Virus genome (UHGV): UHGV-0096789
Length of the DNA: 19,581 bases
Source: a virus
Direction: 5' to 3' (one strand)
How positions within the stretch are numbered: position 1 is the stretch's first letter; every line of letters starts with the position of its first letter. Shown piece by piece: positions 14,215 through 19,581 of this stretch. Under the pieces are notes generated by a model that ran no database searches, was not told where the DNA came from, and worked only from the letters and a program-made list of their open reading frames with translations. A program made the position numbers and the translations under genes.

Positions 14215-14600
14215 GGCTGGTATCCCGTCACGTGCTGCCACTCCTGCGAGAAGAGGGCGGAAAGGCGGTTAAATTCAGCGGTGTATTCACTCAGCGAGGC
14301 ACACCCGCCAGCAGTGTGATGCGCCAGCATTGCCGCAAATACGGAGGCCGGGGAGTCGTAATACGCCAGCAGTGATTCGCCGTGTGGTGTCAGGCAGTGC
14401 AACGCCAGCCCGTGTGGTGTGAAGTCCACGCGGTAGCAGTCGTCTACTGTGAAATAAAGGGTGTCCGCATTCTCCGGTTTTGTGGTGCGTGTTCTGTTGT
14501 CACGACCACGGATGTAGAGATCAAATAATCCCTGAAGAACGGGAGCCAGACGGGTGTCCTGTGTGCGCACCCATCTTGTGAAGTCATGAGCGTCAATCAT
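14211..14600 (-). CDS. Hypothetical early protein, 129 aa, translationally coupled to A
   Basis: ORF with stop overlapping the A start; AAAGAGAA upstream of ATG 14600; no family recognised. Confidence 0.5.
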   Translation of the reverse strand: MIDAHDFTRWVRTQDTRLAPVLQGLFDLYIRGRDNRTRTTKPENADTLYFTVDDCYRVDFTPHGLALHCLTPHGESLLAYYDSPASVFAAMLAHHTAGGCASLSEYTAEFNRLSALFSQEWQHVTGYQP

Positions 14601-14672
14601 GCTGCAATTCTCTTTACTACAGATGTGCGAAGGCCTCCCGCCGCAAGGTGCAGGAAAGGCCCGGAACAGGAA

Positions 14673-14903
14673 TTAATTGAGTTTGTTTTGCTGCTGGATG
14701 AGATCCTGAAGAGACAGGAGGTCTTCCGCCAGATAGCTGAATACAGCGGCGCAGTAGTCGGCTGAAATAGTGCTGTTGAGTCTGTGCAATGCGTTGGATT
14801 GCATGATAAAAGCGATGTGCGCAGCGCGGGTGAGTCTGCGGTTGATTTCAGTCTGGATGTGACGACGCGCAGCGTATGCGCGCTGTTGTTTGCGGTTTGC
14901 CAT
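14673..14903 (-). CDS. Hypothetical small basic helical protein, 76 aa
   Basis: ATG 14903 with AAGAGG 8 nt upstream; competes with overlapping 205-aa ORF 14597..15214, which looks like a GC-rich frame artefact. Confidence 0.4.
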   Translation of the reverse strand: MANRKQQRAYAARRHIQTEINRRLTRAAHIAFIMQSNALHRLNSTISADYCAAVFSYLAEDLLSLQDLIQQQNKLN

Positions 14904-15078
14904 GGTGTGGCCTCTTGTGTAGTAAGTTGTGAAAACTCACCATCCAGAGCTGCGAAACTGTGGGTGGCGAGACGTACGAGGTTCGCAGTACCGGCTACAC
15001 AAGAACCCGGCCCGACCGAAGTCGGCCCCGTACGCCCCGCCATAATTCTGGCGCGAAAAAAACGTGGCAATACAGTAC

Positions 15079-15108
15079 GCACAAAAAAACCGCTGGCGCG
15101 GTTGTGCG
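15079..15108 (-). terminator. Minus-strand intrinsic-terminator-like element downstream of orf183
   Basis: On the minus strand: stem CCGC-GCCA-GCGG followed by TTTTTTT, nested in outer inverted repeat CGCACAA/TTGTGCG; ~120 nt after the orf183 stop. Confidence 0.4.
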
Positions 15109-15223
15109 CTTGTGTAGTTAGCAGGCTGCGAAACCCGGCACCCGTTTTATGAGGTGCAGCGGAAATGTAACCTGACTGATTGCGGCATGGCAAGCGGTTT
15201 TTTTGTGTGTACATAGTGGTTAC

Positions 15224-15775
15224 TCAGTCCGGTAGTAGTTCGCAAAGCACGGTATCAGCGGCGGTATATCGTGCGTAAAGCCTGGCGGGGACCCATCTTT
15301 TAAGGGATATCCCGGTCGTGTCCCGGATGTGCTTCCTGATTTCGCTGAATGTCATCCCCTTCTCATCACGCAGTTCAGTTACCAGCTCCACCAGGTGATC
15401 GCTGTATCTGGTTCTGTGGTGGAGTTCCCCGTATTTCCTGAACCGATACCCTCTTTTTCTCAGGTTCAGTTCTACCGTGGATGGCGAGCGCCCCAGCTCA
15501 TTCGCGAGTTCCCGGATGGTTTTTGTGTGGCGATTCCTGATGAGCATGCTGAGTTCTTTTGTACTCAGTGGAGTTTGTTTGGCGTGAATAACCCCCTGAG
15601 AGAGCAAAAGACGGATGCGGCTTCGTATTGCTGACTCGGTTCTCTGAAAATGCTTTGTCAGCTCCGGCGCTGTGTGGGAGTGGTATAACGTGGCTAAAAG
15701 TTCATCCTCCTGCTGTGTCCATGGCTTTACATGTGCCGGAGCCACACCAGGCGTACCCATTGGTTTGAGTTTCAT
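15224..15775 (-). CDS. Putative DNA-binding protein with three HTH-like repeats, 183 aa
   Basis: AAGGGAG RBS before ATG 15775; three similar segments (KPWTQQEDELLATLY...TESAIRSRIRLL; LSTKELSMLIRNRHTKTIRELANELGRSPSTVELNLRKRGY; LVELVTELRDEKGMTFSEIRKHIRD) suggest repeated HTH/Myb-like modules; assignment by motif only. Confidence 0.55.
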   Translation of the reverse strand: MKLKPMGTPGVAPAHVKPWTQQEDELLATLYHSHTAPELTKHFQRTESAIRSRIRLLLSQGVIHAKQTPLSTKELSMLIRNRHTKTIRELANELGRSPSTVELNLRKRGYRFRKYGELHHRTRYSDHLVELVTELRDEKGMTFSEIRKHIRDTTGISLKRWVPARLYARYTAADTVLCELLPD

Positions 15776-15789
15776 TGTGATTTACTCCC

Positions 15790-16089
15790 TTACTGGTTAA
15801 GGAAAAAATCGAAAACGTTGTCGATGCGTTGCAGCAGCTCCTGCTGCATCGCTTCCGGCGTTTCTGATTCACCTGGTGACTCCAGCGGTGCGCAGAAATC
15901 CTTGATTTCATGATGGAGCGTCAGGCGAATGGCAGGAGCCATGGTTCTGGCGTGCTCCAGCTCATCCAGAAGCGCCAGCACGGCAGACGGCGAGAACATT
16001 GCGCAAAACGCCAGTAATTTTTGATGTGTTGCCATTCGTTGCAGGTCAGTCGCCAGTTCGCGTAATTTCTGGTGGTTGATGGTGCTCAT
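15790..16089 (-). CDS. Hypothetical early protein, 99 aa
   Basis: GAAGGAAG RBS; ATG 16089 overlaps the upstream gene stop (ATGA). Confidence 0.5.
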   Translation of the reverse strand: MSTINHQKLRELATDLQRMATHQKLLAFCAMFSPSAVLALLDELEHARTMAPAIRLTLHHEIKDFCAPLESPGESETPEAMQQELLQRIDNVFDFFLNQ

Positions 16090-16325
16090 GCTCTGGCTTC
16101 CTTCAGTAGCTGGTTAAACATGTGGGTTAGTGGGTTGCCACACCCGAACGGCAGCGTGTTCACCTCGTAGCAAAACTCCGATGCGCGTTCTTTCCTGTTA
16201 ACGTGACCATCGCTCCAGAGTCGGCGTAGCCCTCTAGTGATAACTTGTTTTGGCATATTCAATGCGGCTGCAATCTCGCTACTGGTGCATCCCGGATGGG
16301 CTGCGATGTAGTCCAGAATGGTCAT
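16086..16325 (-). CDS. Small winged-helix-like DNA-binding protein, 79 aa
   Basis: AGGAG RBS; MTILDYIAAHPGCTSSEIAAALNMPKQVITRGLRRLWSDGHV resembles a MarR/wHTH recognition unit; translationally coupled both sides. Confidence 0.55.
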   Translation of the reverse strand: MTILDYIAAHPGCTSSEIAAALNMPKQVITRGLRRLWSDGHVNRKERASEFCYEVNTLPFGCGNPLTHMFNQLLKEARA

Positions 16326-16525
16326 CTGCGTGGCTCCTGTACCTGTCGGATAAGATTCACCCGTGCCACGTTGGTGGCGCAGAAGTAAGTGCCGTCAGTG
16401 AGATAGATGTGATGTGCATCCTTTTCTGAACGGTGTTTGTCGATTGTGGTAATCAGGCGTTCGTCAACTTCGTATTCACGTCCTCTGGAGGTGAAACGAA
16501 CGACAGGAAAATGCTTAATTGCCAT
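16322..16525 (-). CDS. Hypothetical early protein, 67 aa
   Basis: Strong AGGAGG RBS 5 nt before ATG 16525; stop overlaps the next start. Confidence 0.5.
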   Translation of the reverse strand: MAIKHFPVVRFTSRGREYEVDERLITTIDKHRSEKDAHHIYLTDGTYFCATNVARVNLIRQVQEPRR

Positions 16526-16552
16526 TACGCCTCCTGGGTGTGTGCGAATACC

Positions 16553-16574
16553 TCCGCGAATGCGGATTTTTTTT
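16553..16574 (+). terminator. Plus-strand intrinsic-terminator-like element (TCCGC-GAAT-GCGGA then T8) antisense to the early operon
   Basis: Inverted repeat 16553-16566 followed by eight T at 16567-16574; in the spacer between the 37-aa peptide gene and orf67. Confidence 0.4.
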
Positions 16575-16612
16575 CACATTTTCTTATTTAATCTGGTGTT
16601 TTATTGGCGCTG

Positions 16613-16726
16613 TTATTCGCCAGTGAAAAAACGTTCAATCTTTTTCACGGAATCAATAATTCGCACAATGCCAATGGCGCAGAACACCGAAATAACCAGG
16701 ACAAGCCAGGATATAAATATACTCAT
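16613..16726 (-). CDS. Unannotated small hydrophobic peptide, 37 aa (MSIFISWLVLVISVFCAIGIVRIIDSVKKIERFFTGE)
   Basis: Hand-translated from the minus strand: ATG 16726..16724 overlaps the stop of orf80 (ATGA), GGGGAA 7 nt upstream, TAA at 16615..16613; one TM-like helix then charged tail; below the ORF-track length cutoff. Confidence 0.35.
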   Translation of the reverse strand: MSIFISWLVLVISVFCAIGIVRIIDSVKKIERFFTGE

Positions 16727-16965
16727 GCGATATTCCCCAGTGTGTACGGCTTAATATAATCCCCGTTTTCTGCGGCGCAGACGAGTTCGGAAAGTTCGTC
16801 GAGTGCATCGAAATCGTCAGCGTAAAAAGCTGCGTCGTACAGACTCCTGATGGCTCTGGTCAATGACTCGCGGGCTGCACGTTCAGCATGAACCCCTGAT
16901 GCGCTTAAACGAAAATAAAAACGCTCAAGAGCTTTGTTGATGAGGGTTTTGTATTCTGTACCCAT
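16723..16965 (-). CDS. Hypothetical early protein, 80 aa
   Basis: ORF in the compact early operon; no family recognised. Confidence 0.5.
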   Translation of the reverse strand: MGTEYKTLINKALERFYFRLSASGVHAERAARESLTRAIRSLYDAAFYADDFDALDELSELVCAAENGDYIKPYTLGNIA

Positions 16966-16986
16966 CTGGCGTTATCCCGAAAATAA

Positions 16987-17244
16987 TTAAAGAAGATGCT
17001 CGATTGATTTACCGGATTTAATCTGTTCAATCATTTCGTTAATCATGAAGAACGGTGGGTAATCATTTGCGGCTGCGGCAACCTCTCTTAATGACTCCAG
17101 TCCGTTAATCAGTTGGCGTTTTGCTTTGGCTGGACTTCTTTCTCCGTTAAGCATGTTGAAAGCGCAGTGCGTGACTACTCGATGAGCAAGACATCGGTAG
17201 ACCGCCTCCGGTGTTGCTTTTTCGCCTGTTGCTGAGGCTGTCAT
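16987..17244 (-). CDS. Hypothetical early protein, 85 aa
   Basis: ORF 3 nt downstream of orf116 stop; no family recognised. Confidence 0.5.
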   Translation of the reverse strand: MTASATGEKATPEAVYRCLAHRVVTHCAFNMLNGERSPAKAKRQLINGLESLREVAAAANDYPPFFMINEMIEQIKSGKSIEHLL

Positions 17245-17247
17245 TGG

Positions 17248-17598
17248 TCAATAGCTCCACGGGTGCTGAAAACTACGGCCTGCAATTAAGCGGTCAACGG
17301 TGCGCAGTGCTTCGTATAATGTGAAATCCTGTCCGAACTGATTGTCGCCGTTGCTCAGTGCAAAAATGCGGTTTCCGGTAAACGGATTACGTGGGCATTT
17401 GTGGACCACGATTCCAGCTTTCTCAATCAGCCAGGCATGTTCGCCGATTTGTTTTACAACGTGACCATCTGGTGTCGCGTGTGTATTGCTCAGGCTGTAG
17501 CGGATGCTATTGCGCGATGCGCTGGTAGCGAAACGGTTGGTGTGGCGTTTCGTTCCGTTGTGGAAGCGCTGCTGTGAAGAATTGCGCCGTTCTTTCAT
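17248..17598 (-). CDS. Hypothetical early protein, 116 aa
   Basis: ORF directly downstream of the cox-like gene; no family recognised. Confidence 0.5.
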   Translation of the reverse strand: MKERRNSSQQRFHNGTKRHTNRFATSASRNSIRYSLSNTHATPDGHVVKQIGEHAWLIEKAGIVVHKCPRNPFTGNRIFALSNGDNQFGQDFTLYEALRTVDRLIAGRSFQHPWSY

Positions 17599-17635
17599 AT
17601 CAAAATACTCCGCCTAAAATGAATTATTGTTTGAG

Positions 17636-18061
17636 TTATGCTGCTTTACCGCTGATATTTCTGTTTCGCCTGCCACTTGTTGGCTTAAATAAAAACAGAC
17701 GGTTTTCCCAGTCGTGCCATTCCTGAGGTGCGTTTTCGATGAGTCGATCGCATGCTTCATCCCACGCTTTTCTGTTGATGTAGAGTTCAGCGTTTCCGCC
17801 TGGTTTGAGAGGGTCCGCCATATACACCGCAGGTAGCTTTCCTGCTTTGGCCATGCTTACGATGGCGTCAACGGTCTTTCCGATATATATCGCAAATCCT
17901 TCTTTTGACAGGAGATGCGAGGGATTTTCTGAAAGTCGAATTTCTTCACGTTCACGTGCTTTGCGTCCTGTTTTTTGATGCTCCCCTTCTGGCATTTTTG
18001 GCTGGTGATCGCATCGTGTTTCGCAAAGTGACTCAGGCGCGTTTTGAGTGCTTTCTTGCAT
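17636..18061 (-). CDS. Cox/Apl-like HTH protein at the first position of the early lytic operon (probable excision/switch regulator), 141 aa
   Basis: Strong GGAGGA RBS 7 nt before ATG 18061; divergent from C; central HTH-like segment FAIYIGKTVDAIVSMAKAGKLPAV; longer than P2 Cox (91 aa). Confidence 0.55.
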   Translation of the reverse strand: MQESTQNAPESLCETRCDHQPKMPEGEHQKTGRKAREREEIRLSENPSHLLSKEGFAIYIGKTVDAIVSMAKAGKLPAVYMADPLKPGGNAELYINRKAWDEACDRLIENAPQEWHDWENRLFLFKPTSGRRNRNISGKAA

Positions 18062-18169
18062 CTGATATCCTCCGCCATTGGTGCTTTCTTCTAACTAGCA
18101 CCATTTAGAACTAGTTAGCGCAATCCATCGTGTGTTAATTGATGCATAAACTAAGTGAGTTAACTTACT
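18062..18169. promoter_or_regulatory. Immunity-switch intergenic region (early and repressor promoters with operator-like repeats)
   Basis: Between divergent cox-like and C genes; CTAACTAG (18091-18098) and its reverse complement CTAGTTAG (18111-18118), plus the 8-bp palindrome AACTAGTT (18109-18116). Confidence 0.5.
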
Positions 18170-18469
18170 ATGTCAACTACCGTAGCTATGAAAATTCGCA
18201 TCATGCGGAAGTCAGAAATGCTTACGCAAGAAAAAATGGCAGAGATTACTGGGCTTACTCTTGCTGCATTAAGGCAATATGAGCAAGGACGAAATGAACC
18301 CAACCTTGAGTCAACAAAAAAGCTTCTGAAAGCTCCCATGTTCCGTAAGTACCGCGACTGGTTTCTGTTTGATGAAGTTGACCCCAAGACCGGGCAGGTT
18401 GTGCCGGCTCTCGCACACATTGGGCAAGGCGAAGCGGAATTATCCCGCTCCGGCAAGAAAACTGGTTAA
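18170..18469 (+). CDS. C: Immunity repressor (P2 C-like)
   Basis: 99-aa ORF resembling remembered P2 C (same length; IRIMRKSE..., PALAH.GQ, C-terminal SGKKTG); immediately upstream of int as in P2. Confidence 0.85.
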   Translation: MSTTVAMKIRIMRKSEMLTQEKMAEITGLTLAALRQYEQGRNEPNLESTKKLLKAPMFRKYRDWFLFDEVDPKTGQVVPALAHIGQGEAELSRSGKKTG

Positions 18470-18490
18470 CGGTTCACCAGGCATTTTTTT
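18462..18490 (+). terminator. Weak terminator/attenuator-like hairpin plus T7 between C and int
   Basis: CTGGT-N9-ACCAG (18462-18480) then GCA and seven T (18484-18490); overlaps the C stop codon; 5-bp stem only. Confidence 0.3.
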
Positions 18491-18535
18491 CCCAGAGCTG
18501 TGATCAAGATGATGTTTTCATTGGAGGGCTTCCTT

Positions 18536-19531
18536 ATGTCGATTAAGAAGCTCGCTAATGGCAAATTTTGTGTGGACGTGCGGCCTGCTGGATCGGAAGG
18601 AAAGAGATTCAGACGGCGATTTGATACTCGTGGTGAGGCTGTTTTGTATGAGCGTCATGTATTGCAGCATTACCACGACAAAGACTGGGTTGATAAGCCA
18701 ACAGAACGGCGCTCGCTGAGGGAGTTGCTGGATTGTTGGTGGCTATACCACGGGAAAAATCATCCTTATGGTGCGATGGAGCGAGTGCGTATTTCTGCGG
18801 TCATTAGTGATCTTGAAAGTATTAATGTTACACGCAGTGACCAACTTACTCGTAAGAACATAATTAATTATCGCTTATTGCTGCTTAACCGCGGAATAAA
18901 ACAATCCACGGTTAATCGTTATTGTGCAATGATGAGTGGTTTCTTCACAAAACTAATTGACGCAGAGGAATATTCTGGGGCTAATCCGTTTCATGATATA
19001 AAAAAACTTAATATCAAACAGCCTGAAATGGCTTATTTGTATCATGAAGATATTCCACGATTACTGGAGTTGTTATCTGGTGATGAATTAAAAGCCGTCT
19101 TGTTGTGTCTGGCAACAGGTGGAAGATGGAGTGAGGTTGCAAATATCAAGGGGGAGCATGTTATTAGCGGCAAAGTCATTTTTATGGAAACCAAAAATGG
19201 GAAGCGTCGCGTTATACCTATATCGTCAGAACTGGAGTGCATGATTAAAACAAAGGCCACTGGTCGTTTAATTTATCCAAGTTATGCAGCTGTCAGAGCT
19301 GCTATCAGAAAGGTGAGGCCCGATCTTCCTGAAGGGCAGTCGATACATGTTTTACGGCATACCTTTGCCACTCACTTCATGATTAATGGTGGGAATATCA
19401 TCACTTTGCAGAGAATACTTGGACATAGCACTATTCAGCAGACGATGACTTATGCCCATTTTGCACCGGATTATCTACAGGATGCTGTGCGCTTTAATCC
19501 TGTGGCTGAGTTGTCCAGATATTGCCCATAA
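18536..19531 (+). CDS. int: Tyrosine integrase (P2 Int-like)
   Basis: ORF 18500..19531; start taken at ATG 18536 (MSIKKLANGKFCVDVRPAGSEGKRFRRRF...) with GGAGGG 6 nt upstream; C-terminal catalytic region HVLRHTFATHFMINGGNIITLQRILGHSTIQQTMTYAHFAPDYLQDAV nearly identical in pattern to P2 Int. Confidence 0.9.
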   Translation: MSIKKLANGKFCVDVRPAGSEGKRFRRRFDTRGEAVLYERHVLQHYHDKDWVDKPTERRSLRELLDCWWLYHGKNHPYGAMERVRISAVISDLESINVTRSDQLTRKNIINYRLLLLNRGIKQSTVNRYCAMMSGFFTKLIDAEEYSGANPFHDIKKLNIKQPEMAYLYHEDIPRLLELLSGDELKAVLLCLATGGRWSEVANIKGEHVISGKVIFMETKNGKRRVIPISSELECMIKTKATGRLIYPSYAAVRAAIRKVRPDLPEGQSIHVLRHTFATHFMINGGNIITLQRILGHSTIQQTMTYAHFAPDYLQDAVRFNPVAELSRYCP

Positions 19532-19581
19532 AATAGGACTAAATAAGCCGACTTAAGACTATGTGTATTGATGTAACTAAT

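Follow-up and report, generated by a model that had tools for sequence, protein, structure and literature searches.

The window, that is, the whole stretch of 19,581 nucleotides that was analyzed, is a P2-family prophage of Escherichia coli; among named phages, P88 and other members of Xuanwuvirus are the closest to it. Its early genes form a minus-strand operon that diverges from the plus-strand genes for a C-type repressor and an integrase, and the gene order, which is syntenic with P88, P2, and 186, matches that of the P2 Pe and 186 pR early lytic operons. Within this operon lies an open reading frame (ORF) of 37 codons that begins with ATG and encodes MSIFISWLVLVISVFCAIGIVRIIDSVKKIERFFTGE, a product identical to the peptide sequence given in the original prediction. 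Judging from synteny and from the Cox-family gene at the head of the operon, the peptide gene occupies a non-structural, promoter-proximal position in an early lytic operon. The coordinates of the peptide gene and of the surrounding features are listed in Table 1.

Table 1 Features of the early region of the prophage and its flanking genes.
Feature	Position	Strand	Basis or remark
Integrase gene	18500-19531	+	
C-type HTH repressor gene	18170-18469	+	
Cox-family gene, first in operon	18061-17636	-	
DUF4761 gene	17598-17248	-	
orf85	17244-16987	-	
DUF4754 gene (80 aa), always the coupled upstream partner	16723..16965	-	Pfam PF15946, E 7.9e-49
Shine-Dalgarno-like GGGGAA, 6 nt 5' of the peptide ATG	16733..16738	-	Sequence and duplex energy
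ATGA start/stop overlap, translational coupling junction with the DUF4754 gene	16723..16726	-	Kept in all lineages
Gene for 37-aa predicted membrane protein (P88 gp07 homolog)	16613..16726	-	ORF, conservation, and helix prediction
Spacer between peptide gene and orf67 (87 nt), contains the hairpin			
Conserved hairpin, 39 nt past the peptide stop	16551..16575	both	Operon strand AAAAAAAA-TCCGC-ATTC-GCGGA-GG
orf67, next cistron	16322..16525	-	phrog_3459
MarR-like wHTH gene	16325-16086	-	
Ead/Ea22-like gene, then HTH protein gene, after the MarR-like gene		-	
Derepression-family gene	14903-14673	-	Pfam E 5.7e-5, below gathering score
Replication gene A (GPA)	14241-11374	-	

The ATG of the peptide gene (16726-16724) overlaps the TGA (16725-16723) of the 80-aa DUF4754 ORF in the sequence ATGA, as had been claimed. 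This overlap was kept at all 83 loci compared and was also found in the diverged lineages L083, L087, L088, and L091; identical 4-nt overlaps join orf67 to the MarR-like gene and the MarR-like gene to the Ead/Ea22-like gene within the same operon. The GGGGAA element that had been noted upstream of the ATG was likewise confirmed on the minus strand. Its pairing with the 3' end of 16S rRNA was predicted at -5.5 kcal/mol, compared with -4.1 to -10.3 kcal/mol for the accepted genes of the operon, a modest value that 15% of random 20-mers attain; the corresponding energies in relatives were -4.2 to -8.5 kcal/mol. A GGGGAA or GGGAAA motif precedes the ATG at 83 of the 83 loci, and the diverged lineages retain a purine-rich motif at the same position (GAGGAG, AGAGGTGG, or AAGGGGAA) despite a differing C-terminus of the overlapping DUF4754 protein. 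The presence of both the overlap and the Shine-Dalgarno-like motif in every lineage supports the proposal that the gene is translationally coupled inside the early operon. The peptide would thus be translated by way of the ATGA and of the element in the 3' end of the DUF4754 gene, and such coupling would imply joint production of the two proteins. If the operon behaves like that of P2 Pe, expression would be expected to be restricted to times at which the repressor is inactive, following infection or induction.

The peptide gene had been described as hidden, a claim that did not hold given that the ORF is already annotated in RefSeq and GenBank. An ortholog in the closest Escherichia coli genome is called by PGAP (WP_139501117.1), P88 gp07 (YP_009113050.1) carries the RefSeq label "membrane protein", and the exact window peptide is recorded from 385 contigs as "hypothetical protein [Escherichia coli]", with sister alleles in E. 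coli, Shigella, and Salmonella labeled "prophage membrane protein". The similarity to P88 gp07 extends over the full length (tblastn, 86-89% identity over 37/37 residues, E ~5e-13). P88 gp07 and the E. coli RefSeq clusters are orthologs of the window peptide (86-89% identity, equal length, same operon, and ATGA after DUF4754) and differ from it only at the allele level. The context of the window locus is also that of P88 gp07, with the overlap with a DUF4754-type gene, the P2-like early operon, and a TCCGC-N4-GCGGAGG hairpin downstream.

We matched the 1-kb region around the peptide gene in 1321 of 5426 complete E. coli genomes. The region is thus present in about a quarter of such genomes, yet the peptide and DUF4754 are without known function. 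The peptide gave no match at a meaningful threshold in Pfam, NCBIfam, PHROG, or PADLOC; at E <= 1, the Pfam, NCBIfam, and PADLOC scans returned noise only (DUF6007, E 0.16; TIGR01218, E 0.15; nothing in PADLOC). A sequence search revealed no relative in the PDB, and a literature search yielded no paper dealing with the peptide, DUF4754, or the corresponding region of P88-like genomes. The purifying selection on a tiny frame, together with the constancy of its coupling to DUF4754 and of the hairpin, delimits a compact three-part unit; this is an annotation-level result, sound rather than surprising.

Given the 81 ORFs of 25 aa or longer that overlap positions 14500-19581, the last 5 kb of the window, an ORF of 37 codons is by itself unremarkable, and we counted it as more than chance because it is conserved across relatives. 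A scan with the DUF4754 protein gave relatives among viral contigs, whereas genome contigs gave no confirmed locus; the 83 sequences compared consist of 80 viral contigs fetched with the DUF4754 gene as anchor, two annotated records, and the window. Loss of the frame in related prophages had been named as an outcome that would refute the original prediction, and we found the frame open at all 83 loci. The product has 37 aa at 77 of these loci and 45 aa at the other 6, in which one base is missing from the T-run at codon 33.

The pattern of substitution is that of a protein-coding sequence under constraint. Among 35 distinct alleles, variable sites were distributed as 11, 4, and 18 over the first, second, and third codon positions, and pN/pS was 0.27 in the peptide frame but at least 1.2 in the two other sense frames. 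The peptide frame was the only one of six to be free of stops across all 44 alleles, the other frames carrying stops in most or all of them. Between lineages, pS was 0.47-0.75 (near saturation) and pN was 0.19-0.27, corresponding to dN/dS values of 0.07-0.35 (Fisher p 2.5e-5 to 0.015), with these statistics being derived from 111 nt in a handful of lineages, all of them from Enterobacteriaceae. Relative to the window allele, pN was 0.20-0.27 for the peptide and 0.45-0.53 for DUF4754, so that the peptide is better conserved than the protein encoded immediately upstream. An exhaustive phmmer search with the peptide against 1.84 billion cluster representatives found only seven clusters (50% identity) at E values of 2e-9 to 4.5e-4, some of these homologs being merely 51-62% identical to the query. 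Three diverged homologs were located on their contigs, and each of them belongs to a P2-like early operon, where it lies directly 3' of a DUF4754-type gene and overlaps it by 4 nt.

These data also bear on the possibility that the ORF is a chance frame or a mis-annotation, that is, an untranslated 3' region of the DUF4754 gene that is conserved for an RNA or DNA function. The ORF is indeed very short and without a curated family, its annotation comes from automatic pipelines only, and its Shine-Dalgarno-like element is modest. Third-position and synonymous changes are nevertheless in excess, the frame stays open at 62-74% nucleotide identity with conservative amino acid replacements, and length is largely maintained; moreover, alternative frames are interrupted, and the peptide is more conserved than an accepted flanking gene. 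We therefore regard this explanation as scarcely credible. On the sequence evidence, the 37-codon ORF is a genuine conserved gene under purifying selection, and that it encodes a membrane protein appears highly probable.

The original prediction had described a transmembrane-like helix followed by a short charged tail, and both hydropathy and the AlphaFold model agreed with this description. The mean Kyte-Doolittle hydropathy of residues 3-21 is 2.84, residues 22-35 are amphipathic with a hydrophobic moment of 2.0, and all four positive charges (R22, K28, K29, and R32) lie in the tail. AlphaFold predicted one continuous helix spanning residues 2-35 (pLDDT 93). The peptide is thus predicted to consist of a single transmembrane helix of ~19-22 residues (3-21/24) and an amphipathic, positively charged tail. 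According to the positive-inside rule, it would be situated in the inner membrane with its N-terminus out and its tail in the cytoplasm; Pf3 coat protein is a model for such N-out/C-in insertion. Across 31 distinct full-length sequences, M1, S6, W7, A17, G19, I23, I24, K28, I30, and F34 are invariant, and S13 is nearly so. The invariant small and polar residues together with the tail residues K28, I30, and F34 suggest specific helix packing or binding to a partner rather than unspecific hydrophobicity.

The extreme C-terminus of the peptide is dispensable or plastic at the level of the sequences compared, given that rare truncated alleles of 30 and 32 aa occur in addition to those of 45 aa. 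The T-run responsible for the latter lies at window positions 16621-16626 (codons 32-34), and the loss of one base has recurrently given rise to the 45-aa class, which has a different, Asn/Thr-rich C-terminus. This class has diversified further (P0062, P0064) and therefore represents a stable alternative tail rather than a sequencing error.

In its design, the peptide resembles the E. coli proteins AcrZ, MgrB, CydX, and Blr, which likewise have 30-50 aa, one transmembrane helix, and positive charges on one side. Small single-pass membrane proteins of bacteria and phages typically bind a larger membrane or membrane-proximal partner. The peptide shares no homology with these four proteins or with Pf3 coat protein, however, and its gene is phage-borne and coupled to that for a soluble helical protein.

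A terminator-like hairpin on the plus strand had been predicted just beyond the peptide gene. We found the stem-loop at 16553-16566 (TCCGCGAATGCGGA) followed by T8 at 16567-16574. In relatives, the hairpin, which reads TCCGC-N4-GCGGA between an A-tract on its 5' side and GG on its 3' side, is kept where the remainder of the spacer is only ~60% identical. Its 5-bp stem was 99.3% paired over 30 distinct variants; in one class, C-G is replaced by U-A, a compensatory change, and two variants have a G.U pair. When the viral collection was scanned for the hairpin motif, 120 stretches were detected, and the peptide ORF was immediately upstream in all 118 of those that were assessable.

The scanner flagged an opposite-strand terminator-like site in three diverged lineages as well, and a plus-strand U4-5 tract situated 1-3 nt past the stem is invariant among lineages. 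An uninterrupted run of T7-T8 is confined to the window and L003. At window positions 16568-16575, the operon strand reads A8 (T8 on the plus strand), compared with AAAAC(N)A in almost all relatives, and as a result of this homopolymer expansion the opposite-strand terminator looks much stronger here than it does family-wide. On the operon strand, the hairpin has no U-run, which ruled out a classical operon-strand terminator of the type represented by P2 or 186 tR1. The two G.U variants correspond to A.C mismatches on the plus strand and lean slightly toward a role in operon-strand RNA. The most likely reading of the hairpin, which we hold tentatively and at somewhat less than an even chance, is that of an opposite-strand terminator or insulator; an element for stability or processing of the operon-strand RNA is a possible but less probable second reading, and some other role accounts for the remaining, smaller probability. 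The hairpin region showed no match to an Rfam family.

Diverged relatives harbor opposite-strand genes inside the early operon (L083 4672-5157, L087 2972-3295, and L091 2703-3191, all designated minus; and P88 gp13). Such genes are a possible source of convergent transcription that a terminator at the hairpin could block; window positions 15224-18061 contain no embedded opposite-strand gene of this kind. Two other candidate features at the hairpin were discarded. A mini-ORF running through it (GTG AAA ...) is broken by the extra A of the window, has no start codon in L087-type loci, and elsewhere stops after 14 codons. An outer stem around the hairpin (GUGAA/UUCGCAC) is absent from the diverged lineages.

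The presence of the hairpin beside a hydrophobic peptide had led to the suggestion of a type I toxin-antitoxin locus, in which the peptide would be a membrane toxin restrained by an antisense RNA that ends at the plus-strand terminator (16553-16574). With regard to its size and predicted physical character, the peptide does resemble the toxins Hok, Ldr, TisB, Ibs, and Fst (<60 aa, one hydrophobic helix, and a short charged C-terminal tail), and every lineage retains the opposite-strand hairpin with its U-tract in physical linkage with the peptide gene. The suggestion failed on architecture, however. An RNA ending at ~16574 halts 39 nt short of the peptide ORF, which begins on that strand at 16613, and would lie opposite the start of the gene that follows rather than opposite the peptide gene. 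This next gene differs among relatives, being orf67 or one of several inserts encoding 105-138 aa, so that there is no conserved body for an antisense RNA, and conservation past the hairpin extends for only ~16 nt. No plus-strand promoter was detected within 16000-16640, even under permissive rules.

An antisense promoter within the ORF was also considered and rejected. It was flagged only in L087, L083, and L091, at two different positions, and neither the commonest allele nor that of the window has it; when synonymous codons were resampled, such sites appeared in 7-35% of cases. Codons for Ile, Lys, and Phe, residues in which the peptide is rich, resemble -10 and -35 boxes when read on the opposite strand.

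In contrast to the established toxins, moreover, the peptide had no match to a toxin-family HMM (Hok/Gef, Ldr, TisB, Ibs, Fst, and others), no small RNA was matched in Rfam, and a gene for an antisense RNA was not found. Whereas the toxin gene of known type I systems is separately promoted and translationally silenced, the peptide gene is a cistron in the interior of an operon, coupled to its neighbor through a 4-nt overlap and provided with an accessible Shine-Dalgarno-like element, both of them kept in all lineages. The locus thus shares with type I systems only the physical character of the peptide, and we consider a toxin-antitoxin function very improbable.

A DUF4754-type gene was located directly upstream of the peptide gene at every locus examined. 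On the other side, about half of the relatives continue 3' of the hairpin to orf67, as does the window, and the others have one extra gene at this point. The inserted genes lie between the hairpin and orf67 on the same strand, encode 105, 105, 136, or 138 aa, and are of at least three unrelated types; the mosaic junction corresponds to window positions 16526-16552 (relatives L030, L054, L035, L023, and L055). Given the constant DUF4754 gene upstream, the constant hairpin downstream, and the divergence beyond, the comparison of sequences indicates that the DUF4754 gene, the peptide gene, and the hairpin are inherited as a unit with a mosaic junction immediately after it. The intervening gene in about half of the relatives likewise places orf67 outside this unit. 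For recombination, the hairpin may represent the boundary of a module.

The AlphaFold model of DUF4754 was all-helical (pLDDT 88). Foldseek searches with this model against the PDB and BFVD gave nothing below E ~0.4, only generic helical bundles being returned, and a sequence search of the PDB was empty or yielded noise. The product of orf85 showed a weak match (E 9.4e-5, residues 32-83) to phrog_2549, the PHROG of DUF4754, and orf85 may be a diverged tandem paralog of the DUF4754 gene; no small ORF of its own follows it.

Because neither homology nor the fold of the partner protein was informative with regard to function, our interpretation of the role of the peptide is based on the position and the design of its gene. 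We favor, as the probable reading overall, a coupled early-operon gene for an accessory protein of the inner membrane. The peptide would be a non-structural factor that functions at the inner membrane during early lytic growth, either anchoring or partnering the soluble DUF4754 protein or acting on a host membrane target. Joint action with DUF4754 appears to us to be close to an even chance. A host-targeting role is plausible, the argument for it being genomic position.

This argument comes from phage 186, in which fil (a division inhibitor) and dhr (an inhibitor of host replication) occupy the equivalent slot just before the terminator tR1. The fil-dhr region of 186 and the corresponding block of P2 consist of small, overlapping, non-essential, promoter-proximal early genes that are followed by a hairpin and then by genes leading to A. 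There are differences, however, in that neither Fil (75 aa) nor Dhr (66 aa) is a single-pass membrane peptide like the one described here, and in that 186 tR1 and the putative terminator of P2 are operon-strand structures with a U-run, whereas the U-run of the window hairpin is on the opposite strand.

The same position could be taken to indicate that the peptide is a stand-alone host inhibitor, either Kil/Fil-like or membrane-depolarizing, that blocks division or growth early in infection independently of DUF4754. It is encoded in a promoter-proximal early block just upstream of a hairpin, as are fil and dhr before tR1, and small hydrophobic peptides are often toxic if over-expressed. A BLASTP comparison of the peptide with Fil gave no alignment, however, and Pfam and PHROG provided no match to Kil/DicB-type or other host-inhibitor families; the peptide thus has no similarity to Fil, Dhr, or the Pfam families of the Kil/DicB type. 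Furthermore, the strict genetic coupling to DUF4754 across lineages suggests a joint function. We consider independent inhibition of the host to be unlikely.

An early membrane factor for superinfection exclusion or anti-defence, with timing like that of T4 Imm and Sp, would be directed at the injection of incoming DNA or at a membrane-bound effector of host defence. The accessory genes in this slot vary between relatives, as is typical of host-interaction genes, and early lytic production of a small inner-membrane protein, as the operon would imply, is compatible with such a function. The peptide nevertheless matched no PADLOC system or functional PHROG family, and classic prophage exclusion genes are on in the lysogen, so that the position in the operon speaks against this explanation, which we judge to be quite improbable.

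A more far-reaching version of the accessory-protein reading is that DUF4754, the peptide, and the hairpin constitute a previously unrecognized two-protein module for host takeover in P88-like phages. The peptide would tether or activate soluble DUF4754 at the inner membrane and thereby stop a host process, for which division, membrane-associated replication, and envelope defence would be candidates. The module would be a functional replacement of 186 fil-dhr, with the opposite-strand terminator insulating it from convergent transcription. We put forward this proposal as a doubtful one. Were the peptide found to be a host-directed membrane factor, it would extend the short list of characterized early accessory functions of the P2 family; were it to have no measurable effect, it would be just another conserved small protein of phages.

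Farther along the early region, between the gene for a 183-aa HTH protein and the derepression-family gene, two RNAs were matched in Rfam above the gathering score: C4 antisense RNA (83 bits) at 14960-15047 and isrK Hfq-binding RNA (66.5 bits) at 15083-15157, both on the minus strand. On the basis of these matches, this segment looks like a c4-antirepressor control cassette of the P1/P7/P4 type within a P2-like early region. Two ORFs that overlap the RNAs, one of 205 aa at 14597-15214 (-) and the other of 122 aa at 14784-15152 (+), are probably spurious.
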